DNA of 64,000 nt from Escherichia coli (GCF_044324875.1 NZ_CP172185.1), one strand, 5' to 3'. Counted from the first letter of the stretch, positions 16,533 to 41,677 are shown. Numbers and translations: made by a program. The notes: generated by a model from the letters alone, not told the origin.

Positions 16533-16546
16533 TGAATGCCTCCCGG

Positions 16547-16843: not shown

Positions 16844-16852
16844 GCCGCGCCC

Positions 16853-17316: not shown

Positions 17317-17413
17317 GATTTAATTCTCCTCTGTTTCCGGCGTGCAGAAGCCCGCGGCGCTGACGCCGGAATAAAAAAGAAAATGTTTTTATTAAATAAT
17401 TAACGTGGTGTGT

Positions 17414-17944: not shown

Positions 17945-17971
17945 ATTTTATGATTTCTCCGGTTGTGCTGA

Positions 17972-18241: not shown

Positions 18242-18243
18242 TA

Positions 18244-19410: not shown

Positions 19411-19420
19411 GTTTCCCTCC

Positions 19421-21190
19421 TCAGTTGCCGTTAACAATGCTGATAACGCTGCTGCGGGCCGGCGTGGTCAGCGTGGCCATGACTTCATCCAGTGCGGCTT
19501 CCGGTACGCCGTCCGGGTACTGTGCTGTTAACTGGCGGTAATGTTCCGGCGTCCAGGTCAGGCCGTCGGCGCTGAACTTATCGCGCAGGGCTTTCGCGGC
19601 CTCCACATGAGTCATGGGACGCTGTTCAGTGCGCGGTCCGCGTACGTCAGAGGCCTGACCACGCTTCGGTATACAGGCCGGAAGTGTGGCGTCATCAATA
19701 TGTTTATACGGGTCAAGCCGCCCGCCGAACGGCAGCGCCTTCGCCTTGCGTGCGGCAGCTGCATCTGCGGCGTTGTCTGTACCGGTGACCAGCGCTTCGG
19801 TTTCTTTTGCCGCCATCTGCGCCGGGGTTTCCGGCAGGGCTTTGTAACTTTCGCCAAATACCGCCGCGCCTTCAGCAAAGCCAAACTCGTTCTTTCTGAC
19901 CTCTTCGACCAGGAAGAACGTCTCGTGGCCGTCCTCACCGGTCAGAACCACCTGTGCCACATCGCTGCGCCACGGGTTACGGGTAATCATCAGTTTTTCA
20001 CCGACCAGTACGCCCGGTACCGTTGATACGTCAAATTCAGTGCCCCGGAACGAGACACGAAGTTTTGGCGTGACTTTGCGGAGTTCTGGTGCCGCCACAG
20101 CCAGTTCACGACATACCTCAACGGAAGGCGCTTTTTTCAGCTGCTCAGCAGTAATCTTCAGCCAGATATCCGTGCGGGTTTTACCGTGGCGGCTGTGAAC
20201 AGCCGTGGCGTTAAAGTGGCTGCGCCATTTCGCGGCCAGCGCGTTGAGTTCTTCCAGACTGTGAACCGGCCGGAACTTCAGACCCGGCTCCAGCTTGCGT
20301 TCGATAATGTCACGCGCCTTTTCCACCTGTCCGGTGGCGCGGGCGTTATGCGGCTTGTGCGCTATCAGGTCGATGCCCAGTGAGCGGCACATGTTTTTCG
20401 TCATACCCGCGGTGTTTGCCGAGCCGGGGTCGAGATAGAGTATTTTTGGCACGCCGTGCAGCACGTCTGCGCCGCCACGCTCCTGCATGGCGTTGATAAG
20501 CACAGAACACAGGTTCTCACCGGATTCCGCACCCGTCACATACTCAACGTAAATCCAGCCGCTGGCATGGTCGGTAATCTCGTAACTCCACACGCGGTCA
20601 CTGGCGATACGGGCAAGGTTAGCGGGCTTGTTTTTGTAGAATTTCGCGCTGTCCATCACCTGCAGCCCTTTATGTCCATTGCTCAGGTAGTAAAGCGTGC
20701 AGAGTGAGGCGTCAATCTGCCAGACATGATTGGGGTGCAGACTGGCCACTTCGGTATGCGGTGCAGGGGCATCCAGTTGTTCCGGGTGCAGGCCATAGTT
20801 ACGCAGGGCACGACTGATGGCATCTTCGGACAACGGGAAAAACTCACCGGTGGTTTCATCTGTTCTGCCTGCGGAGATAAAGCCGTTAGCCCGCAGGGTT
20901 TCCACTGCATCCGCGATGGAATAGAGACGCTTACCGTTCTTGCGGGTGGCCTCACGTAGTGTGGCAGATATCAGCGCGGCTTCGTCGCGGGTCAGGGTGC
21001 TGCGTCCGGCATCGGCGCGTTTTTTGCGTTTATCAGTCACAGAGACCTCCTTCAGCCTGCGCAGCAGAGTGGCGCGGGACATGCCAAGTTCAGCACAGGC
21101 AGCGTCGTATATTGCACCGCGTTTACCATGCCCCGCATTACGTGCCGCGCGGGCTGTTTCAACAAGTTTTTCAGTCAGTGCCGGGGTCAT
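19421..21190 (-). CDS. DDE transposase (Mu A-like function, rve-type catalytic core with N-terminal HTH)
   Basis: 589-aa ORF; HTH RATLLRRLKEV; HVWQIDASLC core; position upstream of MuB-like gene. Confidence 0.8.
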   Translation of the reverse strand: MTPALTEKLVETARAARNAGHGKRGAIYDAACAELGMSRATLLRRLKEVSVTDKRKKRADAGRSTLTRDEAALISATLREATRKNGKRLYSIADAVETLRANGFISAGRTDETTGEFFPLSEDAISRALRNYGLHPEQLDAPAPHTEVASLHPNHVWQIDASLCTLYYLSNGHKGLQVMDSAKFYKNKPANLARIASDRVWSYEITDHASGWIYVEYVTGAESGENLCSVLINAMQERGGADVLHGVPKILYLDPGSANTAGMTKNMCRSLGIDLIAHKPHNARATGQVEKARDIIERKLEPGLKFRPVHSLEELNALAAKWRSHFNATAVHSRHGKTRTDIWLKITAEQLKKAPSVEVCRELAVAAPELRKVTPKLRVSFRGTEFDVSTVPGVLVGEKLMITRNPWRSDVAQVVLTGEDGHETFFLVEEVRKNEFGFAEGAAVFGESYKALPETPAQMAAKETEALVTGTDNAADAAAARKAKALPFGGRLDPYKHIDDATLPACIPKRGQASDVRGPRTEQRPMTHVEAAKALRDKFSADGLTWTPEHYRQLTAQYPDGVPEAALDEVMATLTTPARSSVISIVNGN

Positions 21191-21205
21191 AGCTTGTCTT
21201 CCCTG

Positions 21206-21523
21206 TTATCCGATTCTGGCGGCAATTTTTCTGGCACGGTCGCGCAGGGTTTCGCCATCGCAGGTTTTCACCACGTTATTTACCGGTTGCGGCGCAACTG
21301 CCGGGCGCAATGCTGACTGATGCTGCAGACGTCTTATCTGCTGCATCAGCATCACTTCCATCGTCAGTACAAACGGATGCGCCTCCTGTGCGGGTACGCA
21401 GATTTCACCGGAAGGTGTCACCACGCGGAAACCCTGCACCATCTCCGGCAGCAGATTACACAGTGCGTGCCCCAGTGCCTCCGGGCTGTCCATCAGGATA
21501 TTTTGTGTGTTATCCGTGTTCAT
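21206..21523 (-). CDS. hypothetical early protein (105 aa)
   Basis: ORF between ner-like and transposase genes. Confidence 0.4.
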   Translation of the reverse strand: MNTDNTQNILMDSPEALGHALCNLLPEMVQGFRVVTPSGEICVPAQEAHPFVLTMEVMLMQQIRRLQHQSALRPAVAPQPVNNVVKTCDGETLRDRARKIAARIG

Positions 21524-22440
21524 TACTGCATGCCCTCCGGTCGGTTGATTTCAGGCTCCGGTTCGGTCAGCCATGCGGGGACATCGTTACCCGATGGTGC
21601 GGCATCAAGGTCGAACGTCTCACGCAATGCATGAACACTGCGTTCAATCTGGCAGACCAGACCGGCCATGAAATCTCTGGGGGTATCAATCATGTTTTTA
21701 CTGCAGTATTCACACAGGGTTTCAAAGGCACCGGAGAGCCGGACGGCGATGGCAGATTCCGCCTCAACCGCTAATGCGGTCACTTCCGCCCGCAGCTTCT
21801 TCACCTCTTCATCAGGCTCAGGCGGTTGAATACGGGATTTCTTCTCCAGTTTTGTGGCCAGTTCGTTGATTTTTTCGTCCTTTCCGGCAAGCACCTGTTG
21901 CTGAGCTGCGTTAGTTTCGCGCGCTTCACGCAGGGCCTGGCGAAGTTCACGTACTGACATGCGATCAACATCATCAAGCGTCAGGCCGGCAACTGTGCCG
22001 CCGTCGGCCAGTTCGGCAAGGTCTTCATCGTCTTCAGCAACAAGTTCAAATAATTTTGCCTTACCCAAAAGCGACAACGTTGTCGCTTTTGGCTCTAGTT
22101 TTGGTGAAAGGTATTTCAAAGATGCTTTCATCATTCGTTGTGCTGCGCGCACGTGCAAACCAAGTTGTTCTTCTACAATTCCAACAAAGTCCCCGTGTGG
22201 CTCATTTTCTTTTAAGATGATCAGCCGTTTACCCGCTTCCAGCATAGATTCAGCACTCTGCGCCATATAAAAACGTGCTTCGTGAACGATGCGATCACGT
22301 TCATAAGGCAGTCCATCACCAAACTGCTGCATGATCTCCATGCGATGCTGTGTCATGGCATTCAGGCTGACGTTGAGATCATCCGACAGCGGTACCTCGG
22401 CGTTCAGTTCAGTGTTAACCGGTGATTTGGTGCGTCCCAT
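21523..22440 (-). CDS. hypothetical early protein (305 aa, acidic coiled-coil region)
   Basis: ORF between ner-like and transposase genes; no confident family assignment. Confidence 0.45.
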   Translation of the reverse strand: MGRTKSPVNTELNAEVPLSDDLNVSLNAMTQHRMEIMQQFGDGLPYERDRIVHEARFYMAQSAESMLEAGKRLIILKENEPHGDFVGIVEEQLGLHVRAAQRMMKASLKYLSPKLEPKATTLSLLGKAKLFELVAEDDEDLAELADGGTVAGLTLDDVDRMSVRELRQALREARETNAAQQQVLAGKDEKINELATKLEKKSRIQPPEPDEEVKKLRAEVTALAVEAESAIAVRLSGAFETLCEYCSKNMIDTPRDFMAGLVCQIERSVHALRETFDLDAAPSGNDVPAWLTEPEPEINRPEGMQ

Positions 22441-22450
22441 TGATTACTCC

Positions 22451-22759
22451 TTACAAACGACTACCTGAAATGACACGTTGGTTGATTTCGTTAATGCGAT
22501 CCTGTGCACGTGCCATCTCGTTACTGTGGGCCATGGCGATCTGCAGCAACTGGATGCCCGGTGCGAAACGCCCGTTTTCCAGTTTCAGGGCCAGTCCTTC
22601 TTCAATGAGGGTGTTGAGTGCCCGGTTGATGTTTGCCGGTGACTCGTGCAGTGCTGCCGCCAGTTCACCATTGGAAATACCGTTCAGGGCATGACCGCGC
22701 AGCGCTTTGAGTACCCGGAGGATGCGACTGCCGGAGCTTGAAACATTCGTCTTACTCAT
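22451..22759 (-). CDS. winged-helix DNA-binding protein (about 102 aa)
   Basis: HTH-like segment ILRVLKALRGHALNGISNGELAAAL; start at MSKT has the better SD spacing. Confidence 0.45.
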   Translation of the reverse strand: MSKTNVSSSGSRILRVLKALRGHALNGISNGELAAALHESPANINRALNTLIEEGLALKLENGRFAPGIQLLQIAMAHSNEMARAQDRINEINQRVISGSRL

Positions 22760-22811
22760 CTGCATACCTCTTTTGCGATATGTGATAACCTTTTACAAAG
22801 AATCAAAATAT

Positions 22812-23000
22812 TCAGGCTGCCTGAGCTGTTGATTTCAGCCCCAGTTTCACGGCGATTTCATGGGATTTACCGTAACGTGCTTTGCTCTGCCCATTGAGAA
22901 CGCGGTATACCTCATTGCGGTTGTAGCCGTTTTCTTCTGCCCAGCGGGTGAAAGTGATCCCGCGCTGGCGGAAGAGAGCTTTGACTTGTTCTGCAGTCAT
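22812..23000 (-). CDS. ner: Ner-like small DNA-binding protein (Cro-equivalent)
   Basis: 62-aa ORF with AAGGAGA SD, divergent from the repressor; Ner-like HTH pattern. Confidence 0.55.
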   Translation of the reverse strand: MTAEQVKALFRQRGITFTRWAEENGYNRNEVYRVLNGQSKARYGKSHEIAVKLGLKSTAQAA

Positions 23001-23100
23001 CGTTGTCTCCTTTGTTGATGCAATGATGTTTGCCTTATGTGTGATAGATTATGGTGCAGATTATCTCACCAGTCAACTTAAAGAGTGCAGAAAAACTCAC
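23001..23100. promoter_or_regulatory. divergent early control region between ner and repressor (candidate operators)
   Basis: 100-bp AT-rich spacer containing the direct repeat AGATTAT twice (GATAGATTATGGTGCAGATTATCTC). Confidence 0.35.
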
Positions 23101-23439
23101 ATGATCGGGTTACGTATTAAAGAAGAAAGAGAGCGTCTATCTCTTACACAGCAAGGGTTGGCTGATGCTATCGGTGTGGCAAAGAGAACTTTTATTGATT
23201 GGGAAAAAGATCGCACTTCTCCTACTGCAGTGCAGTTATCTGCACTATCAGAAATCGGTGTAGATGTTTTGTATGTAGTTACTGGGGTGCGGAGTCAGCC
23301 TGTTGTTGCACCTTATATGTCACAAGAAAAGAAAGAGTTAATGGATGCATTCGACGAGATGAGCCCCGAACAACGGAGGGCAATTCTTGAGGTCGGCAAA
23401 GTCTTCATTCAACCCAAACCAAGCAAACTCGCAGGCTGA
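23101..23439 (+). CDS. XRE-family HTH repressor (c-like)
   Basis: Internal start MIGLRIKEERERLSLTQQGLADAIGVAKRTFIDWEKDRTSP, a classic XRE HTH; divergent from ner. Confidence 0.6.
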   Translation: MIGLRIKEERERLSLTQQGLADAIGVAKRTFIDWEKDRTSPTAVQLSALSEIGVDVLYVVTGVRSQPVVAPYMSQEKKELMDAFDEMSPEQRRAILEVGKVFIQPKPSKLAG

Positions 23440-23525
23440 TTCTGACCTGGACAGAAAGGACAGGTGGTTGATCTGGATGCTTTCAGAAAACGCCGTCAGT
23501 AGCATGGCAGAAATCGGCGGGCTTA

Positions 23526-23548
23526 CCGGAAAGCACTGTACTTTCCGG
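23526..23548. terminator. bidirectional terminator between convergent repressor and dam genes
   Basis: Stem CCGGAAA / TTTCCGG with 9-nt loop followed by T-rich tract. Confidence 0.5.
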
Positions 23549-23557
23549 TTATGGCTT

Positions 23558-24322
23558 TTAGAAATTGCAGATCACCAGCTCACGGCGTGGAGTTGATTTG
23601 CCTGCCAGACTGTAGTTGATGTTCACTGTCTGTATGTTCAGTCCAGTGAACACCTCGCGCATCTGCGGGATGTCGTTCACCGAAATTATCATCTTTCCTC
23701 TGATGCACCGGGCCAGCTCTGCCAGCCGCGAGTAGTTCCCTTCAGGAAAATCCACACCATAGCCTTCTGTACCCAGATACGGCGGGTCACAGTAGAACAG
23801 CGTGTGCGGACGGTCATAGCGCTCAATGCACTGTTGCCAGTCCATGTGTTCTATCACCGTTCTGGAAAGCCGCAGGTGTGCCGCTGACAGTTCTTCCTCG
23901 ATACGCAGCAGGTTGAAGCGTGGCGGGGATGTGGTGGAGGTGCCGAAGCTGTGCTCTGCCACCTTGCCGCCAAACGCCTGCTTCTGGAGGTAGTAGAACC
24001 GTGCTGCACGCTGGATATCCGTCAGTGTTTCTGTCGGGGTGATCTGCAGCCATTTGTAGATCTGCCGGCTGACCAGCGCCCATTTGAACTGGCGGACAAA
24101 TTCTTCCAGATGATGTTTTACCACCCGATACAGATTTACCAGTTCACCATTGATATCGTTAATGACTTCGAGCTTACCAGGTGTCTTAAGAAAATAGAGC
24201 GCTGCTGCGCCGCAGAACGGCTCCACGTAACATTCATGCGCCGGAAACAGCGGCAGGATGTGTTTTGCCAGGCGACGTTTGCCACCAATCCATGGAACGA
24301 TGGGTAATGTCTGCATTTTCAT
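23558..24322 (-). CDS. Dam-type N6-adenine DNA methyltransferase (D12 class)
   Basis: 254-aa ORF with DPPY catalytic motif and N-terminal FCGAAALYF SAM-binding motif. Confidence 0.8.
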   Translation of the reverse strand: MKMQTLPIVPWIGGKRRLAKHILPLFPAHECYVEPFCGAAALYFLKTPGKLEVINDINGELVNLYRVVKHHLEEFVRQFKWALVSRQIYKWLQITPTETLTDIQRAARFYYLQKQAFGGKVAEHSFGTSTTSPPRFNLLRIEEELSAAHLRLSRTVIEHMDWQQCIERYDRPHTLFYCDPPYLGTEGYGVDFPEGNYSRLAELARCIRGKMIISVNDIPQMREVFTGLNIQTVNINYSLAGKSTPRRELVICNF

Positions 24323-24514
24323 AATCTGTAAGCCTTTTACAATTATTAAAAATATGGCAGGCTAGTCTGGTCTCGCGAGACTGACTGAACCCCGGTCGGC
24401 TCACAGCGCATTCCTGTGGGACGATGGCCAGCCCGGTGGGTCCGAAGCACCGGGCTGGTCGTTCTTTCATGATGCGGCAGGGATGAAGTGATTTCTGTTA
24501 ATGTGGTTTAGGGA

Positions 24515-24730
24515 TTATCCGGGGCGATTTTCTGACCTTATCTGGTCCAGGGCATAAGTGATCCCTTCTGCAAAAACAGAAGTATCAAACTGCTTTTGTA
24601 TTTCCTGAAAATGAACAGTGGCACGACAGACACTCAGTTCTCCGCGATGTAACCGGATAATATCTTCCAGAACATTGTTCACTGCTTCGGCACGGCGCTG
24701 ATGTTCTGTTAACGTTAATCGGGGATTCAT
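24515..24730 (-). CDS. hypothetical 71-aa protein upstream of dam
   Basis: ATG with AAGGAG SD 8 nt upstream; no recognisable motif. Confidence 0.5.
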   Translation of the reverse strand: MNPRLTLTEHQRRAEAVNNVLEDIIRLHRGELSVCRATVHFQEIQKQFDTSVFAEGITYALDQIRSENRPG

Positions 24731-25107
24731 GATGCACTCCTTAAATGATGATTTTTATGTACTCACCGGCAAAATATTCTGCCGATTACTGAACACGCAT
24801 CCGGCTCCTCAGGTTTTGATTTATTCTGGTTTTTTCGATATCCCGGACCAGGTTGATCACGACAGAAAAAGTGCCGGTATTTTATTGATACGCTGATATG
24901 GCTTCGGGATAACAGCTATATTCGTTACTCTCAGTTGCTGGCTGTGGGAGCGGCTGATGTCGTCCTCACGGAAAAAACGCTCTGTCTGCTCAATGCCATG
25001 CCGACCTTTCTGCAGCCCCGGCCCGTACCATTTAAAGAGTCACTTCTGGATGCAGTAAAAACCGGTGAAAATGCAGTCATCGCTGAATGCGTATCCCGGA
25101 TTATGCG

Positions 25108-25656
25108 TTACGTGTTTAATGAACGTAAGTGAGGTTTATCCGCTGTCTGCATAATCCCGATAGCCAGTGCGAGGGGAAGCAATTCCGGGGAAACTCTTTC
25201 AAACAGCGATTCCCATTCTCCTCTCGCCATCACTCTGTCCAGCCCGCCCTCCAGCTGCATTTCAGCAATCTTCCTGATTTCCCGGAACAACGCCGCTTTG
25301 ATCTCTTCATGCTCAGCTTTATTTTCCGGTGTCAGAATGTATTCGTCGAAGAACCGGGGAGGCTGGTTAACGGGGGGCATGTTCACCGGGATGTGTTCCT
25401 GTATCCCGTACTCCGGGGCTGAAAAACATTTTGTTGTCTGACCGGTGAGTTTGCGTAACACCTTCATGAGTTGCTCCTGAAGCAGCTCATTCGTCCGACA
25501 GATACGCTCGTCGTCCACAACTGCGGCATCGACAATGACGCTTTTTCCAAATTCCTTTTTCACCATCTCTTTTATACGCGTCAGAACGTAACTTTTACCG
25601 CTGCCTACAGGCCCGGACACTCTGACGGTGATGGTCGGCTTCGGTGTGACTGTCAT
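25108..25656 (-). CDS. small P-loop NTPase (about 182 aa), function unknown
   Basis: Start MTVTPKPT with AAGGAG SD; Walker A GPVGSGKS and hhhhDD Walker B-like VIVDAAVVDDE. Confidence 0.6.
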   Translation of the reverse strand: MTVTPKPTITVRVSGPVGSGKSYVLTRIKEMVKKEFGKSVIVDAAVVDDERICRTNELLQEQLMKVLRKLTGQTTKCFSAPEYGIQEHIPVNMPPVNQPPRFFDEYILTPENKAEHEEIKAALFREIRKIAEMQLEGGLDRVMARGEWESLFERVSPELLPLALAIGIMQTADKPHLRSLNT

Positions 25657-25725
25657 TCTGTATCTCCTTTGTGAGTGATCCAGCGTGTATTCTGCATACC
25701 CCGAACACGCCTCTCTCTTAACGCG

Positions 25726-25736
25726 CTTTAAAATCC
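25726..25736 (+). promoter_or_regulatory. late-promoter-like motif GCTTTAAAATC about 60 bp upstream of first late gene
   Basis: One of four related motifs at matching distances from late-operon starts. Confidence 0.35.
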
Positions 25737-25787
25737 TCCGCGCCACGCTTTTGCCATGCTGTCTCCACACAACAAGGAGACATTTTC

Positions 25788-26138
25788 ATGAAACCATTCA
25801 CTTCCCTTATCGTTGACGTACAAAAAACCCGCCTGCGTGGATGGCTTGTTGCGGCCGTGCTGCTGCTCCTCATCATCGCGCTGGTCTCACCCCAGCAGTT
25901 GCCGGTGGTGGTGTACAAGCTCTCTCTCATCTCCCTCGCCGCCGTGCTCGGCTACTGGCTGGACCGCTCACTCTTCCCGAAGGCCCGTCCGGGGCAGTAC
26001 CTGAAGCATGACGAGCGCCTCATGGCTGAGGGGCGCTGGCCCGTACAGACCGGCCTTCACCTGGTGTTTTCTGCTGCGTTAATCCGCCGTGCACTGATTG
26101 TTGCAGCTGTCTGTCTGGCTGTTGCGATGGGGCTTTAA
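25788..26138 (+). CDS. putative holin / lysis membrane protein
   Basis: 116-aa ORF with two or three TM segments immediately upstream of the endolysin. Confidence 0.5.
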   Translation: MKPFTSLIVDVQKTRLRGWLVAAVLLLLIIALVSPQQLPVVVYKLSLISLAAVLGYWLDRSLFPKARPGQYLKHDERLMAEGRWPVQTGLHLVFSAALIRRALIVAAVCLAVAMGL

Positions 26139-26140
26139 TC

Positions 26141-26875
26141 ATGAACTGGCCACAGAGCACCTGGATTGTATGCATGTCCCTGAAACTGGCTTTCGAAGCC
26201 TTTCTGGTCTTCATCAGAACCGAACGCCTGTCAGTCCGTGTCGGGACCTTTCTGGTTCATATGGCATGGGTATTCTTTGTCGCAATGTTGCTCTGGTGTG
26301 GCGGCTTCTTCAGTCAGGCCCGCGCAGCGCAGCCTCCGCAGGCTGCGCTGCAGTATCGCGATGATGTGATCCGTAATGCCCGGCTTGAATGGGGGCTGTC
26401 TGCGCCGGTGGCCGATTTCGCCGCGCAACTGCATCAGGAAAGCGGCTGGCGGACTGATGCGGTCTCGCCGGTGGGCGCTCAGGGGCTGGCGCAGTTTATG
26501 CCCGCCACCGCTGACTGGATAAGCCAGTTGATGCCGGCGTTGAGCAGTCGTGAGCCGTTTAATCCGGCATGGGCCATCCGGGCGCTGGTCAGCTATGACC
26601 GCTGGCTGTGGCAGCGCATCAGCGCCGCCAGTGACTGCGAGCGTATGGCCATGACACTGTCGGGCTATAACGGTGGTCTGGGTTGGGTACAACGGGACAG
26701 GCGGCTCGCATCACAGAAAGGTCTGGACAGCACCCGCTGGTTCGGACATGTCGCCACGGTGAATGCCGGACGCAATGCTGCCAGCTGGCGGGAGAACCGC
26801 CATTATCCGCAGCGCATCCTGCACGAACTGGCCCCCCGTTATCTGACATGGGGGGGCGGCAGCTGTGTGGACTAA
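26141..26875 (+). CDS. lytic transglycosylase endolysin (SLT domain), probable signal-anchor (SAR) type
   Basis: SLT catalytic region HQESGWR...GAQGLAQFMPATA; hydrophobic N-terminal segment. Confidence 0.75.
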   Translation: MNWPQSTWIVCMSLKLAFEAFLVFIRTERLSVRVGTFLVHMAWVFFVAMLLWCGGFFSQARAAQPPQAALQYRDDVIRNARLEWGLSAPVADFAAQLHQESGWRTDAVSPVGAQGLAQFMPATADWISQLMPALSSREPFNPAWAIRALVSYDRWLWQRISAASDCERMAMTLSGYNGGLGWVQRDRRLASQKGLDSTRWFGHVATVNAGRNAASWRENRHYPQRILHELAPRYLTWGGGSCVD

Positions 26876-27167
26876 CCTGCTAAAAAATCTGCCGTGGCGC
26901 AGTCTGCTGCTGGCAGTGCTCATAAATGCTTTTCTGATTGGACTTTATTACCTGGGCTACAAAAGTGCAAAATGGCATCTGAATCGATCGCAGTTTGGCA
27001 TTCGAATCGATCATGATTTGGCATCCATCTCCGATCACAGTTTGGCATCACAATCGATCACGATTTGGCATGCTTCCGATCATTGATTGGCATCCTGCCA
27101 GTCACTCCGGGAATTAACTCTTTTCACCACAGTCTCCATTGCCGTGTTTAAACCAGTGGAGACGTCA

Positions 27168-28733
27168 ATGTCCAGAAAGAGAAAATCCAGGAGCACTATG
27201 GAAACCTGTTTTAAGATCCTTCAGCTCAAGTTCGACAAGAAGCTGACTAACCGTTGTATCGGACTGACGTTACACATCAGCGCCTCAACCGTTTTTGAGG
27301 TTCTTGCCCGCTTCAAAGCCTCTTCTCTGTCATGGCCATTACCTGCTGATATATCCCATGACACGCTGGAGAAACTCATTTTTCCGCCCAAAGACACCTT
27401 TGCATCAGAGCTTGTAATGCCTGACATGTTGTACTTCGATACGGAAATGAGAAAACCAGGTGTGACGCGGCAACTGTTGTGGATGGAATACAAGGCACAG
27501 GCGGGTAACAAAGCGATGGGATACTCGCACTTCTGCCGTTGCTACCGGGAGTGGAAAAAAACGCGACGTCTCTCCATGCGCCAGGAGCATCGTGCCGGCG
27601 AAAAGCTTTTTATCGACTTCTGTGGTCCTACGGTTCCTGTTATTAATCCGGACACCGGTGAGATACGCCGCGTGGCAATCTTCGTGGCCGTAATGGGGGC
27701 GTCCAACTATACCTACGTTGAAGCGTGCGAAGGTCAGGACATGATGTCATGGTTAAATGCCCACAGCCGTTGCCTGACCTTCCTGGGCGGCGTACCGAAG
27801 CTGCTCATCCCCGATAACCTCAGAAGCGCAGTGAAAAAGGCCGATCGATATGAGCCTGTCATCAACGACAGTTATCAGGCACTGGCTGAGCACTATGGCA
27901 CGGTTATCATCCCGGCCCGACCACGCAAACCTAAAGATAAACCAAAAGCAGAAAACGGCGTCCTCATCGTTGAACGATGGCTTCTTGCCCGCATCCGTAA
28001 TGAAACCTTCCACACGCTCAGGGCGCTGAATGCGCGCCTTAGGGAGTTACTGACAGACATGAATAACCGGCCAATGAAGGGGTACGGCAATCAAACCCGT
28101 GCAGAACGCTTCCGCATACTGGATGCGCCAGCACTCTCTCCGCTGCCTCTGGCACCTTATGAATACACGGAATACAAAGCTGTGAAGGTTGGCCCTGACT
28201 ACCACGTTGAATATGCCCGTCACTGGTACTCCGTTCCACACGAACTGGTCGGTCAGCGTCTGTCACTGAAGGCGGGGCAGTCGGTGGTACAGCTCTGGCA
28301 CAAGGGGCAGTGTGTGGCGCAACATCCGCGCAGCACACATGAATATAAACACACAACCAATCCGCTTCACATGCCAGAGCGCCACCGGCAGCACGGGACA
28401 TGGACACCGGAACGCCTGATCGAGCAGGGAAAACGTACGGGCCCGTCCACAGGCCGGGTGGTTGAATCCATGCTGAAGGCAAAACCCCATCCGGAACTGG
28501 CTTATCGTGCAGTTCTGGGGCTGCTGGCACTTCAGAAAAAATACGGCCCGGAACGGCTGGAAAAGGCCTGTTACGTTGCCCTGCACTATAACGCCCCTGA
28601 CAGACGCTTTATCGACAATCTGCTGCGTCACCATCGGGAGAACCTGGAGCTTCCATTATCCCGCCAGGGCGAACAACATCCGGCATATGCTTCAGAGCAT
28701 GAAAACCTGCGTGGTCCGGGCTACTACCACTGA
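27168..28733 (+). CDS. istA: IS21-family transposase IstA
   Basis: N-terminal HTH plus DDE core (FIDFCGP ... IPDNLRS ... VERW); start uncertain (27087 TTG to 27198 ATG). Confidence 0.8.
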   Translation: MSRKRKSRSTMETCFKILQLKFDKKLTNRCIGLTLHISASTVFEVLARFKASSLSWPLPADISHDTLEKLIFPPKDTFASELVMPDMLYFDTEMRKPGVTRQLLWMEYKAQAGNKAMGYSHFCRCYREWKKTRRLSMRQEHRAGEKLFIDFCGPTVPVINPDTGEIRRVAIFVAVMGASNYTYVEACEGQDMMSWLNAHSRCLTFLGGVPKLLIPDNLRSAVKKADRYEPVINDSYQALAEHYGTVIIPARPRKPKDKPKAENGVLIVERWLLARIRNETFHTLRALNARLRELLTDMNNRPMKGYGNQTRAERFRILDAPALSPLPLAPYEYTEYKAVKVGPDYHVEYARHWYSVPHELVGQRLSLKAGQSVVQLWHKGQCVAQHPRSTHEYKHTTNPLHMPERHRQHGTWTPERLIEQGKRTGPSTGRVVESMLKAKPHPELAYRAVLGLLALQKKYGPERLEKACYVALHYNAPDRRFIDNLLRHHRENLELPLSRQGEQHPAYASEHENLRGPGYYH

Positions 28734-28749
28734 CAGAAGGAACAACAGT

Positions 28750-29505
28750 ATGAGTGATAACCTGTTAAACAAACTGACCCAACTGAAACTCCCGGCGATG
28801 GCCGGGAGCCTGATACGGCAGCGGGAAACGCCTCAGACCTACGACGAACTGTCGTTCGAGGAAAGGCTGACGCTGCTGGTTGATGACGAGCTTCTGAGCA
28901 GGGAAAACAGCCGTGTGGCACGGTTGAGAAAAAATGCCGGCCTGAAATACCAGGCAACACCGGAAGGGCTGCGCTATCCGGCCTCAAGAGGTCTGCGGGC
29001 TGAACAGATGAGAGAACTGCTGAACGGCCACTACATAACCCACAGGAAAAACCTGCTGATAACCGGTCCGACAGGATGTGGCAAGAGCTGGATAGCCAAT
29101 GCGCTGGGCGAACAGGCATGTCGACAGAAACACAGCGTCCGGTACTGTAGAACCGGGCGATTACTGGAACAACTGGCTCAGGGACGTGTTGATGGCAGCT
29201 GGCTGAAATATCTGAAACAGTTGCAAAAAATACAGGTTCTAATCCTGGACGATCTGGGGCTGGAACAGTTAAGTAACGCCCAGTGTAATGACCTTCTGGA
29301 GCTCATAGAGGATCGTTACGGACAAAGCAGCACGATAGTGGTAAGCCAGTTCCCGGTAGATAAATGGCATGGTCTGATGGAGAACCCAACAACAGCAGAT
29401 GCCATCCTGGACAGACTGGTACATAACTCACACCGAGTGGTCCTTCAGGGAGAGTCACTGAGGAAAAATCCCCCGGTAGTGGAAAGCAGCGAAAAAACGC
29501 GTTAA
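28750..29505 (+). CDS. istB: IS21-family helper ATPase IstB
   Basis: 251-aa ORF with Walker A GPTGCGKSWIA; ATG at 28750 a few bp after istA stop. Confidence 0.85.
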   Translation: MSDNLLNKLTQLKLPAMAGSLIRQRETPQTYDELSFEERLTLLVDDELLSRENSRVARLRKNAGLKYQATPEGLRYPASRGLRAEQMRELLNGHYITHRKNLLITGPTGCGKSWIANALGEQACRQKHSVRYCRTGRLLEQLAQGRVDGSWLKYLKQLQKIQVLILDDLGLEQLSNAQCNDLLELIEDRYGQSSTIVVSQFPVDKWHGLMENPTTADAILDRLVHNSHRVVLQGESLRKNPPVVESSEKTR

Positions 29506-29856
29506 AAAGCGGTAGAAAAAGTTAAGTTCCCGGTTGATCGAATGGATGCGAATCGCTGATCGGACTTCGATGCCAATCCGTGATCGAATAGAGCGGAATA
29601 CGCAAAAGCGGGCATGAAAACGCCACGCGCGACGGCGATAAGGCGATCAGTGAGTTGCAGTCAGCATTCGACACATACAAAACGGAGCAGGCAATGCTTG
29701 AGAACGCTGCATTGCGAGCATGGGCAAAACGGTATCAGGAGCAGGTGGCCGCTGGGCAGCAGGCTGAGGCCGGTTATCTTGAGCAGATTGCTCAACTGGA
29801 GAGTCAGAACAAACAACTACAGGGGCAAATTAACGATGTCACACAGCGCTGGATTG

Positions 29857-30123
29857 ATGAAAAAGGTAAGAGCCATCCCATTGAGTGCGTGTTTACTCGC
29901 GGTTTCGTGCGCCAGTACAACGCCGCACTCGGGTATGACAACGCATCCGTCGACACCGGTCATTCAGACTCAGTTGCCGCCACTGGCACCCGCTCTGGCA
30001 CAGCGACCGGGCAACCTGAAACCACTGACACCCGGTTACGCGATTCGGGTGTCTCCCAGCGTGACGTTCTCGCCAACATCATCGACAACGCAGGACAATG
30101 TCGTCGCTGGCGGAACCAGATAA
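29857..30123 (+). CDS. Rz1-like o-spanin lipoprotein embedded in the Rz frame
   Basis: MKKVRAIPLSACLLAVSCAST lipobox followed by Pro-rich mature region, wholly inside the Rz C-terminal coding region in another frame. Confidence 0.5.
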   Translation: MKKVRAIPLSACLLAVSCASTTPHSGMTTHPSTPVIQTQLPPLAPALAQRPGNLKPLTPGYAIRVSPSVTFSPTSSTTQDNVVAGGTR

Positions 30124-30157
30124 ACGCGTTGCTGGATGAACGGGAAGGATTACAGAA

Positions 30158-30484
30158 ATGACACTGCAGGTTGAATTCTGGACGGTGGTGGGCTTTCTCA
30201 TCACCTTCATGAGCTTTGTTGGCGGTATGGCCAAATGGCTGTTCAGTAAAGCGGAGGAACGTCAGGCTGCACGTTTTGCCTCTCTTGAGCAGTCACTGCA
30301 GCAGTCCGCCTCCAGTTGGGGCGAGCTGGAAAAAGAATTGATGCGATTTAAAGCGGATTTACCGCTGAATTATGTCCGTCGCGAGGATTATATCCGTGGC
30401 CAGACAGTCATCGAGGCCAAACTGGACGCGCTTTACAACAAACTGGAAGTGGTACAGCAGTACCGCAATACCGGAGGTCAATAA
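30158..30484 (+). CDS. hypothetical late protein with N-terminal TM (108 aa)
   Basis: ORF overlapping Rz stop. Confidence 0.45.
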   Translation: MTLQVEFWTVVGFLITFMSFVGGMAKWLFSKAEERQAARFASLEQSLQQSASSWGELEKELMRFKADLPLNYVRREDYIRGQTVIEAKLDALYNKLEVVQQYRNTGGQ

Positions 30485-30795
30485 TGGTCGATATTACCCG
30501 GGTACGCCGTGAATCCCTGCGCTGGAGTCTGCTGGTTGCCCTTAACAAAACCCGCCCTTACACCGCCAGCGAGACGCTGCTGCTGGAAGTGTCCCGCGCC
30601 ATCTACCCGGACACCACGCAACTGGAACTGCGCCGTGAGCTTGATTACCTGGCAGATCGCAAAATGGTGGAACTGGAGAGGAGACCGTCCGGTGACTGGT
30701 TTGCCGATCTGAGTCGCCTTGGTGTGGATATTGTGGAATACACCGTGGAATGCGGCCCCGGTATTGCCCGCCCGGAAAAATACTGGAGTGAGTGA
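30484..30795 (+). CDS. hypothetical late protein (103 aa)
   Basis: ORF; start overlaps upstream stop. Confidence 0.45.
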   Translation: MVDITRVRRESLRWSLLVALNKTRPYTASETLLLEVSRAIYPDTTQLELRRELDYLADRKMVELERRPSGDWFADLSRLGVDIVEYTVECGPGIARPEKYWSE

Positions 30796-31340
30796 TTATG
30801 GGACGTCGCAGCAGCATTGATTCTCTGCCGAAGGAGGTCCGTCGCTGGCTTGAGCGGGCACTGACGGAGAATAATTTCACCGGCTATGCAGAGCTTGAAA
30901 GTCTGTTGAAGGAAAAGGGGTACAGCATCACCCGCTCTTCCCTGCAGCGGTTTGGCTACAAAATGGAGCAGCAACTGGCCCGTGTGCGGGCGGCAACCGA
31001 GGCAGCGCGTCTGCTTGCCCGGGAGGCCGGAGACGATCCTGATGACCGTTCAGCCGGACTGATAACCCTCGTCCAGACCGAAATGACGGATATCCTGATG
31101 CGCCTGCAGGAGTCGCGGGAAAACGACGATCCCTTCGCCCGGGCAAAACTGCTGGCAACGGCTTCAAAAAATATCGCCACACTGACCCGCGCCTCGGTCA
31201 ACCTCAAGCGCTATCAGGCAGAAGTCAGAGAGAGGGTTGAACGTGCTGCCGCTGCCGCCGAGAAAATTGCCCGTAAGGGCGGGCTCTCTGCGGAAGCCGT
31301 ACAGGCACTGCGCCGGGAAATTCTGGGGGTGGCGTCATGA
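30792..31340 (+). CDS. DUF3486-type protein (Mu gp27-like, putative small terminase)
   Basis: 182-aa ORF immediately upstream of large terminase; family recalled from memory. Confidence 0.55.
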   Translation: MIMGRRSSIDSLPKEVRRWLERALTENNFTGYAELESLLKEKGYSITRSSLQRFGYKMEQQLARVRAATEAARLLAREAGDDPDDRSAGLITLVQTEMTDILMRLQESRENDDPFARAKLLATASKNIATLTRASVNLKRYQAEVRERVERAAAAAEKIARKGGLSAEAVQALRREILGVAS

Positions 31341-32860
31341 CGGAGCTGCCGCCGCACATTCCTGACACCGCGAGTTATGAGACACCGCCGGTTCTGTTGC
31401 CTTACCAGCAGCGCTGGGTGGCAGATACCTCTCCGCTTAAGGTGATGGAAAAGAGCCGTCGTACCGGTATTACATGGGCTGAGGCATCCGATAACGTACT
31501 GACCGCAGCCTCTTCTGCGCCTGCAGGCGGGATGAATGTGTATTACATCGCCTATAACCAGGATATGACCGTCGAATACATTCAGGCGTGTGCGATGTGG
31601 GCGCGGGCATTCAACTATGCGGCCAGTGAAATTGAAGAAGGATTCTGGGAGGAGGACGACGACGATAAACACATCAGGACTTACACCATCAAATTTCCTG
31701 ACTCCGGCTTTCGCATTGTCGCGCTCTCCAGCCGCCCGTCTAACCTGCGTGGCCGTCAGGGTATTATTGTTATCGACGAAGCGGCGTTCCATGAGCAACT
31801 GGACGAACTGCTGAAAGCGGCGCTGGCGATGCTTATCTGGGGGGGCAAGGTACGCGTTATCTCCACCCATGACGGTGACGACAATCCATTCAGTACGCTT
31901 ATCGGAGATATCCGTGCCGGACGTCAGGGAGGCAGCGTACATCGCATCACTTTCCGGGAAGCCGTATCTGAGGGGCTGTTCCAGCGCGTTTGTCTGCGCA
32001 CCGGGAAGGAATGGTCGGAGGCATCCGAGCTGGCCTGGATGGCGTCGGTGTACAAATTCTACGGTGCCGGCGCATCCGAAGAGCTTGACTGTATTCCGGC
32101 CAACGGTGGCGGTGCCTGGCTGTCCCGTGCCCTGATAGAGTCCCGAATGTCCGCTGATACGCCAGTATTGCGTCTGACCTGCAAGGAAGGTTATGAACTG
32201 CTGTCTGATGAGGTTCGCTTCCACGAGACACAGGACTGGCTTGATGAGCATCTGAAACCCTTGCTGGAGGCACTCCCCACTGATGCCCGCTCTTTCCTGG
32301 GGCGCGACTTTGGTCGCAGCGGTGATTTGTCGGTGGACTATCCCCTGCTGCAGGAGAAGAACCTGGTACGACGCGTGCCATTCGTACTGGAGCTGCGTAA
32401 CGTGCCGTTCAGACAGCAGGAGCAAATCACCTGGTATCTGATGGATGGCCTGCCCGGTCTGCTGGGTGCAGCATTTGATGCCCGTGGTAATGGTGCCTAT
32501 CTGGCTGAATACGCCATGCAGCGCTACGGCTCCAGCCGGGTTCAGCAGGTGATGCCAACCGAAGGCTGGTACCGGGAGCATATGCCTCCGGTCAAAGCTG
32601 CACTGGAAGACGGTAACCTGCTGGACTTACCAAAAGATGAAGACACACTGGATGACCTGCGGGCCGTTCAGGTGGTGAACGGTGTCCCCCGCGTGCCGGA
32701 ACAACGCTCAAAAGCAAAGGCTGATGGTGGTAAACGCCACGGGGATTCAGCCATCGCACTGGCGCTGGCGTATTTCGCCAGCCGTGAAATTAACAAAGGG
32801 CCGGTGAAGGCAAGCTCACGACGTCGTCGTCAGGCGGCCCGTATGCTGGAGGGATTCTGA
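31337..32860 (+). CDS. terminase large subunit (Mu gp28-like)
   Basis: 507-aa ORF with IIVIDEAAF Walker B-like motif; precedes portal. Confidence 0.7.
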   Translation: MTELPPHIPDTASYETPPVLLPYQQRWVADTSPLKVMEKSRRTGITWAEASDNVLTAASSAPAGGMNVYYIAYNQDMTVEYIQACAMWARAFNYAASEIEEGFWEEDDDDKHIRTYTIKFPDSGFRIVALSSRPSNLRGRQGIIVIDEAAFHEQLDELLKAALAMLIWGGKVRVISTHDGDDNPFSTLIGDIRAGRQGGSVHRITFREAVSEGLFQRVCLRTGKEWSEASELAWMASVYKFYGAGASEELDCIPANGGGAWLSRALIESRMSADTPVLRLTCKEGYELLSDEVRFHETQDWLDEHLKPLLEALPTDARSFLGRDFGRSGDLSVDYPLLQEKNLVRRVPFVLELRNVPFRQQEQITWYLMDGLPGLLGAAFDARGNGAYLAEYAMQRYGSSRVQQVMPTEGWYREHMPPVKAALEDGNLLDLPKDEDTLDDLRAVQVVNGVPRVPEQRSKAKADGGKRHGDSAIALALAYFASREINKGPVKASSRRRRQAARMLEGF

Positions 32861-34356
32861 TGGCAAAAGGTATCTGGGTTTCACCCGATGAGTTCGTGGC
32901 GTTTGCCGAACCCAAAAAGTCACTGACCGCGCAGATTGCCTCCCGCAGCCGCGCCATCGACTTTTACGCTCTGGGAATGTACCTGCCCAACCCTGATCCC
33001 ATTCTCAAGGCTCAGGGACGGGATATCCGTATCTACCGCGAACTGCGCACCGACCCGCTGGTCGGGGGCTGTATCCGCAGACGTAAAGCAGCGGTCAAAT
33101 CGCTGGAACGTGGACTGGAGCGCGGTCACGCTTCTGCCCGGGTCTTCCGTTTCATCCGCGACATGCTCGACGATCTGGATCTGTCCCGCATCATCGGTGA
33201 GATGAGCGATGCCGTGCTCTACGGGTATCAGCCCTGTGAAATCATGTGGGGCCGTTCGGTCAGGGCGTGGGCGGTGACGGATATTGTCGGCAAACCGCCT
33301 GAGTGGTTTCAGTTTGATACGGACAACTGCCTGCGCTTCCGGGCTCGTGATGCGGGTGTGGAGGGTGAGCTGCTGTCACCGTCAAAATTCGTGGTGCCGG
33401 CACAGGATGCCTCGTATGACAATCCTTACGGTTTCCCGGACCTGTCCATGTGCTTCTGGCCGGTCGCCTTCAAGAAAGGCGGGATGAAATTCTGGCTCCG
33501 CTTTGCCGAAAAGTTTGGCTCCCCCTGGGTCATCGGTAAGCACCCGAGGGGTGCAAATGATGCAGAGATTGAAAAACTGCTGGACTCCATGGAGCAGATG
33601 GTGGAGGACGCGGTGGCCGCCATCCCTGATGACAGCAGCATCGAACTCAAAGCAGCGGATGGCAAGGCGGACAGCAGCGAGGTATTCCGCGAGCTGATCA
33701 CACTGTCACGCAGTGAGATCTCCATTGCATTACTCGGTCAGAATCAGACCACGGAAGCGAACAGTAACAAGGCCTCTGCACAGGCCGGGCTGGAGGTGAC
33801 GGCTGATATCCGCGATGCGGATGCGGACATCATTCAGGCGGCAGTGAATCAGGTCATAAGAACGGTGGTCACCCTGAACTTCGGCGATGTGCCGTGTCCG
33901 GTCTGGGCCATGTGGGAACAGGAGGCCATTGATGACACCCGTGCCACCCGCGATGAAAAACTCACCCGGGCGGGTCTGCGTCTGACCCCGCAATACTTCA
34001 AGCGTGAGTACCAGCTGCAGGACGGCGATATTGACGAGACACCACCGTCAGAATGCGAGAAGAACATGCTGCCGCTGTCATTTGCCGAGGCGATTGATGC
34101 CGATATTCAGGCTCAGCAGCAGCTTGACGACGCGCTGGACATTCTGATGAACGGAGGTGTGTTAAATGGCACGCTGGAACCCGTCCTGGCACCTCTGTTC
34201 AGACGGGTCGAAAACGGGGTTAACCCGACTGAGCTGCTGGGCGAACTGGCGGAGCTCTACCCTCAGATGAACACGGACGATCTGCAGGAGCGGCTGGCCC
34301 GTATTCTCTTTGTGGCAAATATCTGGGGGCATCTGCATGAGCGTGACAACGGCTGA
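32860..34356 (+). CDS. portal protein (DUF935, Mu gp29-like)
   Basis: 498-aa ORF after terminase; gene order. Confidence 0.7.
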   Translation: MAKGIWVSPDEFVAFAEPKKSLTAQIASRSRAIDFYALGMYLPNPDPILKAQGRDIRIYRELRTDPLVGGCIRRRKAAVKSLERGLERGHASARVFRFIRDMLDDLDLSRIIGEMSDAVLYGYQPCEIMWGRSVRAWAVTDIVGKPPEWFQFDTDNCLRFRARDAGVEGELLSPSKFVVPAQDASYDNPYGFPDLSMCFWPVAFKKGGMKFWLRFAEKFGSPWVIGKHPRGANDAEIEKLLDSMEQMVEDAVAAIPDDSSIELKAADGKADSSEVFRELITLSRSEISIALLGQNQTTEANSNKASAQAGLEVTADIRDADADIIQAAVNQVIRTVVTLNFGDVPCPVWAMWEQEAIDDTRATRDEKLTRAGLRLTPQYFKREYQLQDGDIDETPPSECEKNMLPLSFAEAIDADIQAQQQLDDALDILMNGGVLNGTLEPVLAPLFRRVENGVNPTELLGELAELYPQMNTDDLQERLARILFVANIWGHLHERDNG

Positions 34357-35158
34357 ACTGGCGTACTGCATGACGCTTCCCCCGAAGCGGGCAGTCAGCT
34401 ACCTGAAGTCCAAAGGGTATCAGATTACCTGGGACCAGGAAGAAATGTGGCAGGACGCCCATGCCCGCGCCTTTACCGTCGCTAAAGTGACCCGCCTGGA
34501 TATTCTGGAAGATATTCGCGGGACACTGCAGCAGGCTGTTGATGAAGGAAAAACCGATCGCTGGTTCCGGCAGGAGCTGGAGCCGGCGCTGAAGCGCAGG
34601 GGATGGTGGGGACCGCGTGACACGACTGACCCGGTAACGGGTGAGCCGGTCACCATTCAGCAGGGCAGTCCGTGGCGGCTCGATACCATCTTTCGCACCA
34701 ATATGTCCGTACTCTACAGCGCCGGTCGTTGGGCGGAGCAGATGGAAAACGTCGACGACAGGCCGTACTGGATGTATACCGGCATCAACGACAGCCATAC
34801 CCGCAGGAGCCATCTGGCGCTGCATGGTCTGGTGCTGCGCTGGGATGACCCGTTCTGGCAGGCATTTTACCCGCCGAACGGCTGGCGCTGCCGCTGTAGT
34901 GTGATTGCCCTGAGTGCGGCGGATGTACGTGCCCGTGGCCTGAAGGTTATCAGCTCCGGCTCTGCCATGGGCCAGGAACTGAAACTGGTCTCAGAGAAAA
35001 CCGGCGAAATGTGGAACGTGGCCACCTTTAATACCGGCACCACGAAGGTGACCACCGACGTCGGCTGGTCTTATGCACCGGGGGCAGCATACCGTCCCGA
35101 CCTGGCCCGCTATCAGGGTACGCTTCAGCCACTGGCACAACAGGAACTGAGAGGATAA
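34337..35158 (+). CDS. head morphogenesis protein (Mu F-like)
   Basis: ATG at 34337 overlapping portal 3' end; about 273 aa. Confidence 0.6.
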   Translation: MSVTTAELAYCMTLPPKRAVSYLKSKGYQITWDQEEMWQDAHARAFTVAKVTRLDILEDIRGTLQQAVDEGKTDRWFRQELEPALKRRGWWGPRDTTDPVTGEPVTIQQGSPWRLDTIFRTNMSVLYSAGRWAEQMENVDDRPYWMYTGINDSHTRRSHLALHGLVLRWDDPFWQAFYPPNGWRCRCSVIALSAADVRARGLKVISSGSAMGQELKLVSEKTGEMWNVATFNTGTTKVTTDVGWSYAPGAAYRPDLARYQGTLQPLAQQELRG

Positions 35159-35160
35159 CA

Positions 35161-35619
35161 ATGGCTTCCGATAACCTGGTCAGTGTCACCATTAATGATA
35201 AATCCCTGCGCCGGAGCCTCCGTGCGCTGGATCTGGCTGCCACAGACATGGAGCCTGCGATGCGCAAAATCGCCGGAACCCTGCTGGCGGAAACACAGTT
35301 TAACTTTCTTGATGAGGGGCGTCCGGGGTGGATGCCCTCGCTGGCAGCGGAAGAACGTAACGGACAGACACTGCAGGATACCGGGCGTCTGATGGGGTCA
35401 GTATCAACCGAGCATGACGACCGGCAGGCTGTTGTGGGGACCAACGTTGTTTACGGTGCCATTCACCAGTTCGGGGGTAAAACGGGGCGTAATGAGTCTG
35501 TTGAACTTCCGGCCCGCCCGTTCCTGCCGGTGACGGAGGATGGAGAGCTACAGCCTGAAGTGGTAGTCCCCATCCTCGATACCATTGTCCGCCATCTTGA
35601 AGCAGCGGCCCGTCGCTGA
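35161..35619 (+). CDS. virion morphogenesis protein (Mu G-like)
   Basis: 152-aa ORF; position and size. Confidence 0.55.
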   Translation: MASDNLVSVTINDKSLRRSLRALDLAATDMEPAMRKIAGTLLAETQFNFLDEGRPGWMPSLAAEERNGQTLQDTGRLMGSVSTEHDDRQAVVGTNVVYGAIHQFGGKTGRNESVELPARPFLPVTEDGELQPEVVVPILDTIVRHLEAAARR

Positions 35620-35769
35620 GTTTTCTCTCTTCAGGCGGGTGATTTATCATTGCCAGCGAATGAGGGGCTGTATTACCTTTATAAAGGCTTTACAGCCTCT
35701 GTTTTATAACTGCCTCCGGTTCACCACATTGCTTTCCCTGTCCTTCTCCCCTGATGTTTTCTAAAGCAG

Positions 35770-35781
35770 ATTAAAATCGCC
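35770..35781 (+). promoter_or_regulatory. late-promoter-like motif GATTAAAATCGCC upstream of protease/scaffold gene
   Basis: Second instance of the shared motif, about 60 bp upstream of ATG 35834 in a 214-bp noncoding gap. Confidence 0.35.
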
Positions 35782-35833
35782 GGGCCCGCATTTCTCACAA
35801 ACTGTCTCCGACAACATAACGCGGGACAGCAAA

Positions 35834-36949: not shown

Positions 36950-36958
36950 GGAGAAAGC

Positions 36959-37912: not shown

Positions 37913-37922
37913 GGAGAAGTCT

Positions 37923-38258
37923 ATGACTACACAGCAGGTCACTCTGACCATGACAGTCACAGCCAGTACTGCACTTACTCAGCAGAGGTTTGTGGGAGCA
38001 GATAACGGCGCATGTAAGCAGGGTGCCGTTGCCGTCGGTGTCGCCCAGGTGGATGCCCGTGCAGGTGATCTGACCCCGGTGAGTGTGACCGGGATCCTTG
38101 CAGTTGAAACGGGAGCGGCAGTTTCCAGAGGGGCACTGGTACAGTCTGATGCCAAATCAAGGGCTGTTCCTCAGGCTGACAGTGGTAAATCCTGTGGCAT
38201 TGCACTGGATGAGGCAAAGGCCGAAGGCGACATCATCCGTATCCTGCGCGGGGTGTGA
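37923..38258 (+). CDS. hypothetical head-associated protein (111 aa)
   Basis: ORF in head module. Confidence 0.45.
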   Translation: MTTQQVTLTMTVTASTALTQQRFVGADNGACKQGAVAVGVAQVDARAGDLTPVSVTGILAVETGAAVSRGALVQSDAKSRAVPQADSGKSCGIALDEAKAEGDIIRILRGV

Positions 38259-38259
38259 G

Positions 38260-41359: not shown

Positions 41360-41361
41360 CG

Positions 41362-41643: not shown

Positions 41644-41677
41644 CATCACAGGGGCTCCGGCCCCTTCTTCTTAATCT

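Follow-up and report, generated by a model that had tools for sequence, protein, structure and literature searches.

Does the istA-istB pair that stands between two pieces of a phage lysis gene in Escherichia coli record a transposition into that gene, or do the two pieces belong apart? The locus lies in a stretch of 64,000 nt, one strand of E. coli GCF_044324875.1 NZ_CP172185.1 taken from one assembly and hereafter called the window. Almost certainly, a known E. coli insertion sequence (IS) of the IS21 family has transposed, recently, into codon 34 of the gene for the i-spanin (Rz-like) of a BcepMu-like prophage that is otherwise intact and for which we infer a lysis defect. The data show an insertion with defined boundaries, the empty site that corresponds to it, which element was inserted and a target built like a spanin. 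The insertion and the parts of the interrupted gene are laid out as follows.

26966..29604, plus strand: complete IS21-family insertion sequence of 2,639 bp, RefSeq label ISSso4 family, 100% identical to other copies
26962..26965, unstranded: left copy of the target-site duplication AAAG, read from the junction sequence; the empty site has a single AAAG
29605..29608, unstranded: right copy of the target-site duplication AAAG, read from the junction sequence
26865..26965, plus strand: 5′ fragment of the i-spanin gene, codons 1-33 plus 2 nt, with the predicted N-terminal transmembrane segment
29609..30161, plus strand: 3′ fragment of the i-spanin gene, from the last base of codon 34 to codon 217 and the stop, with the whole predicted periplasmic domain, unanchored
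26865..27086, plus strand: truncated fusion open reading frame (ORF) in its current state, 73 amino acids (aa), of which 33 are spanin residues and about 40 come from the IS left arm

The element runs from 26966 to 29604 (2,639 bp) and has TG...CA termini. Positions 26946-27000 read tattacctgggctacaaaag up to the left junction and TGCAAAATGGCATCTGAATCGATCG... beyond it, and positions 29570-29630 read ...GATCGAATAGAGCGGAATACGCA up to the right junction and aaagcgggcatgaaaacgcc beyond it. In-silico excision of 26966..29608 (2,643 bp) fuses 26865..26965 to 29609..30161 and yields a 654-nt ORF of 217 aa with no internal stop, bearing out the initial annotation, which had proposed that this deletion restores a single ORF of that length. 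Excision of the 2,639-bp element alone leaves the spanin frame broken; one copy of AAAG must also go. The same annotation gave the duplicated sequence as (C)AAAAG: a direct repeat is indeed present, but its length is 4 bp, AAAG, and it appeared longer because the CA just before the right-hand AAAG is in fact the end of the element. The longer duplication CAAAAG was excluded, as four other identical copies of the IS set the right terminus at ...ACGCA. The insertion point, in codon 34, falls directly past the single hydrophobic segment (residues about 13-31) and thus at the boundary between membrane and periplasm, which agrees with the earlier placement between the transmembrane domain and the periplasmic part.

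The ORF list of the window contains each fragment separately, at 73 aa and 168 aa, as it would if the split were native, with a mobile element lying between a gene for a short membrane protein and a gene for a periplasmic protein. The 168-aa ORF, however, starts with TTG and has neither a signal sequence nor a transmembrane segment, and the frame is rebuilt only if one AAAG leaves with the element. The relatives of the gene weigh more heavily still. Of the complete E. coli genomes, 11 contain the predicted empty site, made of 600 bp of each flank with a single AAAG (1,200 bp), as one ungapped piece that is 100% identical throughout. RefSeq annotates there a single 654-nt coding sequence (CDS; WP_021537377.1, ‘hypothetical protein’), flanked by the genes for an SLT-domain transglycosylase and for a small hypothetical protein. 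The spanin region is contiguous in 634 of the 636 E. coli genomes carrying it, and the 3′ fragment in the window is 100% identical to residues 33-217 of the protein in E. coli B771. The whole protein, residues 1-217, aligns without a break to its counterparts in the Klebsiella phage KP12, in the Escherichia phages PhiKM and Phi06_2974 B and, at 70-96% identity, in 57 IMG/VR contigs. One continuous ORF of 216/217 aa is present in all 61 relatives examined, and a native two-gene split in none of them. Comparison with uninterrupted relatives, which had been suggested as a check when the locus was first annotated, thus finds no native split, and the boundaries of the element rebuild the ORF; neither of the two outcomes named there as refuting has come about. 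We consider a native split vanishingly improbable.

Separately, one relative (IMGVR_UViG_2898975184_000011, locus 2501-3154) has a premature stop in the i-spanin at codon 201 (Trp to stop), with loss of the last 17 residues; it is the sole other damaged i-spanin among the 61 relatives.

The occupied junction was not found in 5,426 complete E. coli genomes, nor in IMG/VR, and the insertion is therefore a recent and private event. It is particular to the window only in its site: what it shares with IS hits in prophages generally is the inactivation of one prophage gene by a mobile element, whereas the site itself is unseen in those 5,426 genomes. A junction seen in no other genome searched, next to an element of which many E. 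coli strains carry several copies (in as many as 23 places in one genome), is also what an assembly artefact, a repeat-induced mis-join, could produce. Yet both junctions fall at the exact IS termini with a perfect 4-bp direct repeat, the flanks are 100% identical to the empty site on both sides, and the in-frame restoration likewise speaks strongly against a mis-join. A mis-join would not yield a target-site duplication, and we regard an artefact as extremely improbable.

The inserted element has the full equipment of an IS21-family transposon.

27198..28733, plus strand: istA, DDE transposase, 511 aa from the RefSeq start, matched by NF033546; an in-frame upstream ATG lies at 27168
28750..29505, plus strand: istB, AAA+ helper ATPase, 251 aa, matched by NF038214
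26966..27093, plus strand: IS left arm, terminal TGCAAAATGGCAT plus five 17-mers at a spacing of 22-24 bp, from a repeat scan
29546..29604, minus strand: IS right arm, two inverted 17-mers plus terminal ...GAATACGCA, from a repeat scan

Both istA and istB are intact. The IstA product matches NF033546 transpos_IS21 with 284.7 bits (E 9.2e-85; curated NCBIfam cut-off 160) and IstB matches NF038214 IS21_help_AAA with 257.8 bits (curated cut-off 200); istB starts 17 nt past the istA stop in the same orientation. In identical copies of the element the two proteins are RefSeq WP_045147483.1 (‘IS21 family transposase’) and WP_001282653.1 (‘IS21-like element ISSso4 family helper ATPase IstB’). The termini read TGCAAAATGG... 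and ...GAATACGCA, and inverted repeats pair the two arms (I1, I2, I5-I8). The left arm contains five copies of the 17-mer CGATCN5TTNGCAT (26985-27093, plus strand) and the right arm two (29546-29586, minus strand), with none elsewhere in the 64 kb. Chance would give 0.03 copies, and none of 100 shuffles reached seven, so that the multiple repeats noticed in both arms by the initial annotation stand well above expectation. These 17-mers are presumed to be transposase-binding sites.

The full 2,639 bp is 100% identical to many copies on plasmids and chromosomes of E. coli and E. fergusonii, and near-complete copies (at least 80% coverage) occur in 232 plasmid records and 297 E. coli records. IS21-family elements make target-site duplications of 4-8 bp. 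Four other identical copies, which begin and end on the same bases as the copy in the window, are flanked by duplications of 4-7 bp (CCCGG, GTCAAT, CGCAGAC and AGGA). The element is thus a known, common and intact IS21-family IS that has evidently been active recently, and the copy in the window is presumably active. With the family, as represented by IS21 of plasmid R68.45 and ISSso4 of Shigella sonnei, it shares co-oriented istA (DDE) followed by istB (AAA+), TG...CA termini, multiple short repeats in each arm, variable duplications of 4-7 bp and identical copies at many loci, and there is no substantive difference, the identity with ISSso4 being judged by the RefSeq label of IstB and not by an ISfinder reference. 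The name ISSso4 (or an isoform of it) is accordingly best read as a provisional one, taken from that label; a literature search on ISSso4 returned passing mentions only.

Several observations concern other copies of the element. In E. coli E2 (NZ_CP104509.1 2011010-2013648) an identical IS interrupts the gene for the large subunit of a phage terminase, and in other genomes genes for capsid, bor, replication-endonuclease and dynamin-family proteins are its neighbours. Many of the copies with 100% identity, as well as several of the genomes with a 100% identical empty site, come from chicken or poultry isolates, which hints at the ecological origin of the strain in the window.

What, then, is the gene that was hit? 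It is the third member of a lysis cassette, preceded by two genes.

25788..26138, plus strand: holin, first gene of the lysis cassette, matched by phrog_1528 (E 1.2e-50); RefSeq ‘putative holin’ in relatives
26141..26875, plus strand: endolysin, an SLT-domain lytic transglycosylase, matched by phrog_669 (E 4.9e-67) and by RefSeq annotation

The stop and start codons of the cassette overlap, the 3′ end of the endolysin gene overlapping the spanin start by 11 nt. Over its whole length (residues 1-217) the restored protein matches positions 1-212 of the 212 in the profile of PHROG 1403, ‘Rz-like spanin’ (E 1.5e-89), with weaker matches to four other Rz-like PHROGs. A Pfam scan of the restored spanin gave no significant family, and the protein is therefore not in the Pfam family of lambda Rz (Phage_lysis); sub-threshold Pfam coiled-coil matches (OmpH, Filament and others) were discarded as noise and taken as no evidence of family. 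The protein has a single hydrophobic 19-aa window, at residues 13-31 (Kyte–Doolittle (KD) score 2.03; next best 0.25), and is predicted to carry one N-terminal transmembrane segment in type II orientation (N-in/C-out). An AlphaFold2 model built from a 19-sequence alignment has a helix at 11-119, a low-confidence or disordered linker at 142-180 and a helix at 184-216, with a predicted local distance difference test score (pLDDT) of 75-88 over residues 11-100. The periplasmic domain is thus modelled as alpha-helices around a linker, similar to the helix-linker-helix layout of lambda Rz (PMC6139136). By architecture, gene position and PHROG family, the target appears to be an i-spanin; together with the restored ORF and the empty sites, the match to PHROG 1403 backs the view taken when the locus was first annotated, that an IS21-family element splits an Rz-like i-spanin.

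The gene that follows the spanin (30158..30484) encodes 108 aa that include a hydrophobic segment at the N-terminus and are otherwise helical in appearance. Its product matches phrog_462 (‘lipoprotein’) and is a ‘putative membrane protein’ in KP12 and PhiKM. It was considered as a second i-spanin and rejected, as phrog_462 is not a spanin family.

A second lysis gene is embedded in the 3′ fragment.

29857..30123, plus strand, +1 frame: o-spanin, an Rz1-like lipoprotein of 88 aa, intact, recognized by its lipobox pattern; an alternative ATG lies at 29836

This lipoprotein had been noticed initially as an ORF with an LAVSC lipobox in another frame downstream of the insertion, and its presence there is confirmed. 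Its N-terminus, MKKVRAIPLSACLLAVS followed by CASTTPHSG..., fits a PROSITE-type lipoprotein pattern, Cys18 being the predicted lipidated residue, and the mature protein of 71 aa contains 11 Pro and 20 Ser/Thr. The o-spanin occupies positions 350-616 of the 654 nt of the restored gene, or 0.54-0.94 of its length (L), compared with a typical extent from 0.4-0.5 L to 0.9-1 L for embedded o-spanins (PMC6139136). The frame is open in all 43 distinct relatives. In each of them exactly 80 residues run to the stop from the first match to the lipobox pattern, an LSAC that shortly precedes the AVSC lipobox; the stops upstream in this frame vary among relatives, and the nearest reach the MMSHSAG start. 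Because the frame is conserved in all 43, we hold the o-spanin to be a real gene. Residues 110-143 of Rz, which overlap the Rz1 signal peptide, are invariant even in relatives only 70% identical overall, as is expected of dual coding. In every RefSeq or GenBank record examined the o-spanin gene is unannotated, and the i-spanin goes by the name of ‘hypothetical protein’, ‘lipoprotein’ or ‘putative lipoprotein’.

The pair can be set beside Rz/Rz1 of lambda. Both stand at the end of a holin-endolysin-spanin cassette, both i-spanins have a periplasmic domain of helix-linker-helix layout behind a single N-terminal transmembrane segment, and in both a small Pro/Ser/Thr-rich o-spanin lipoprotein lies wholly inside the i-spanin gene in the +1 frame. 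The proteins in the window are longer (217 aa for the restored i-spanin compared with 153 aa in lambda, and 71 aa for the mature o-spanin compared with 40 aa). Unlike lambda Rz, the i-spanin of the window has no significant Pfam match; its mature o-spanin lacks any periplasmic Cys beyond the lipidated one, and the i-spanin has invariant C127 and C198; and, as opposed to lambda, the i-spanin is broken. Closer relatives are KP12 and PhiKM, the latter classified as Bcepmuvirus, whose proteins are 89-92% identical to the spanin of the window and which share its phage type and the order holin, SLT endolysin, 217-aa gene, small membrane protein, DUF3486, terminase and DUF935 portal. In these phages, as opposed to the window, nothing interrupts the spanin gene, although it bears the mistaken label ‘putative lipoprotein’ or ‘hypothetical protein’. 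The likeness to BcepMu/phiE255 is drawn through these enterobacterial relatives and not from the sequence of Burkholderia BcepMu itself; BcepMu is listed with the spanin families of embedded architecture (PMC6139136).

The insertion cuts off the helical domain of the periplasm from its membrane anchor, residues 1-33, and leaves the anchor fused to about 40 residues encoded by the IS. The periplasmic domain would no longer be exported or anchored; it could be made only from an internal start and would then stay in the cytoplasm. The o-spanin ORF, though intact, would stand downstream of 2.6 kb of foreign DNA and without its partner. After induction, going by the genetics of lambda Rz/Rz1, the holin and endolysin would still act but disruption of the outer membrane would fail, and the cells would round up into fragile spheres, with the outer membrane as their boundary, that lyse only through shear or low divalent cations. 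The insertion thus probably cripples the last step of phage-induced lysis.

Some points weigh against this account of a spanin gene broken by transposition with a consequence for lysis. With a single assembly, a mis-join at a repeat is formally possible, though strongly disfavoured by the duplication and the restored frame. The assignment of the target as a spanin rests on the name of a PHROG family, gene position and predicted architecture; the o-spanin matches no PHROG in a PHROG scan, and the AlphaFold2 model is of moderate confidence (mean pLDDT 64.5). The lysis defect is what we reasonably infer from lambda Rz/Rz1 genetics, and lambda that lacks spanins still lyses if the culture is shaken and receives no extra divalent cations (PMC6139136), so that the phenotype here may be mild.

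Could the IS also act on genes beyond the spanin? From the holin (25788) to about 35619, genes are packed with overlapping stops and starts, the first real gap being 35619-35834, and because of this tight packing the IS may be polar on the genes downstream; polarity on the small terminase, large terminase and portal is possible. A scan of 25600-30600 found no sigma-70-like promoter and no intrinsic terminator in the IS, terminator-like sites on the plus strand occurring only inside the holin and endolysin genes, and the total of such sites was no higher than in shuffles. The scan thus gives no evidence for an outward promoter or a terminator in the IS. It is very improbable that the insertion represents selected disarming (perhaps with polarity in addition), which would leave a non-releasing element that still kills or reprogrammes the cell, or that the right end of the IS drives constitutive expression of Rz1 and late genes.

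Upstream of the cassette, 25657..25787 is a divergent intergenic gap of 131 bp between a leftward 182-aa gene and the holin, and is the only obvious promoter site for the lysis and packaging operon now cut by the IS. No sigma-70-like site is predicted there, which is consistent with an activator-dependent (Mor/C-type) late promoter.

The initial annotation had taken the broken spanin, alongside the broken lhr gene of the host, as a sign of ongoing decay or domestication, which raises the question of how the prophage came to lie where it does and in what state it is.

13285..53653, plus strand: BcepMu-like transposable prophage, 40,369 bp including the IS, in host lhr, delimited by its ends, their duplication and collinearity with B771

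The prophage ends read TGATCAGAC... and ...GGCGCATCA (TG...CA) and are flanked by a 6-bp duplication, CGGAGG (13279-13284 and 53654-53659). By the NCBIfam model of Lhr, the ORFs 9584-11032, 11099-13297 and 53730-54575 correspond to residues 1-482, 506-1234 and 1258-1538, respectively, and the prophage lies between the second and third of these fragments. In other E. coli genomes its left end adjoins gcl, flgJ, flgA, clbG and other genes, and it therefore behaves as a Mu-type transposable phage; among complete E. coli genomes none has it in lhr. For intactness, the reference was the prophage of E. coli B771, which is sited in flgJ and is free of the IS. The two are collinear at 99.85-99.88% identity with three exceptions: the IS, the number of times that a 300-bp repeat recurs in a tail-fibre gene, and an inverted segment, 51332-52939. 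Each of the 54 other CDSs of the B771 prophage has a full-length counterpart in the window, at 97.5-100% identity. The DDE transposase, B-type ATPase, Mor-family activator, Gam, DUF3486 and DUF935 portal proteins, which carry these names in the RefSeq annotation of B771, each pair with one full-length protein of the window. The genes for transposase, B protein, Mor, terminase, portal, capsid and tail are thus unbroken, and both ends are intact with their duplication.

These data bear on the idea that the insertion is a step in progressive decay or domestication, in which the host disarms its prophage. A lysis gene has been struck, the adjoining lhr is broken and also bears a private nonsense codon, and the same IS breaks prophage genes elsewhere, such as the terminase in strain E2. 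But lhr is split because the BcepMu-like prophage itself transposed into it, and the other 54 CDSs are full length in comparison with the IS-free relative, so that the earlier appeal to decay is not supported. Nor is disruption of the spanin recurrent, with 634 of 636 genomes contiguous at this region, and there is therefore no sign of selection; one recent insertion is indistinguishable from a neutral accident. Progressive decay is, in our estimate, unlikely, and the prophage, to judge from its genes, is not visibly decaying.

The nonsense codon of lhr lies apart from the prophage, at 11030..11032, where TAC has become TAA (C to A at 11032; Lhr codon 483). None of the 4,381 E. coli genomes that have this stretch matches the nonsense version at 100%; the best matches have one base different, and in E2863, which is among them (99.5%), the single mismatch is the nonsense base at 11032.

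For the reader of such genomes, the IS, the type of phage, the spanin architecture and the disruption of a gene by an IS are each already known, and their meeting here is ordinary biology that matters little beyond correct annotation. In this strain the spanin fragments should be annotated as one IS-interrupted pseudogene, and the prophage scored as otherwise intact and probably impaired in lysis. The 217-aa gene, which hundreds of E. coli genomes as well as KP12 and PhiKM carry under the name ‘hypothetical protein’ or ‘lipoprotein’, is best read as the i-spanin of an embedded pair. The large break in lhr should be read as a scar of phage integration, not as decay of the host genome.

Two of the differences from B771 concern the tail fibres. 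The tail-fibre gene 50314..51546 encodes 572 aa, compared with 687 aa in B771, and has fewer of the 300-bp repeats. The segment 51332..52939 (~1.6 kb), which encodes the alternative C-terminus of the fibre together with assembly genes, has the opposite orientation in B771; it adjoins a serine recombinase (53003..53575) and resembles the G-segment of Mu with its Gin-type host-range switch.

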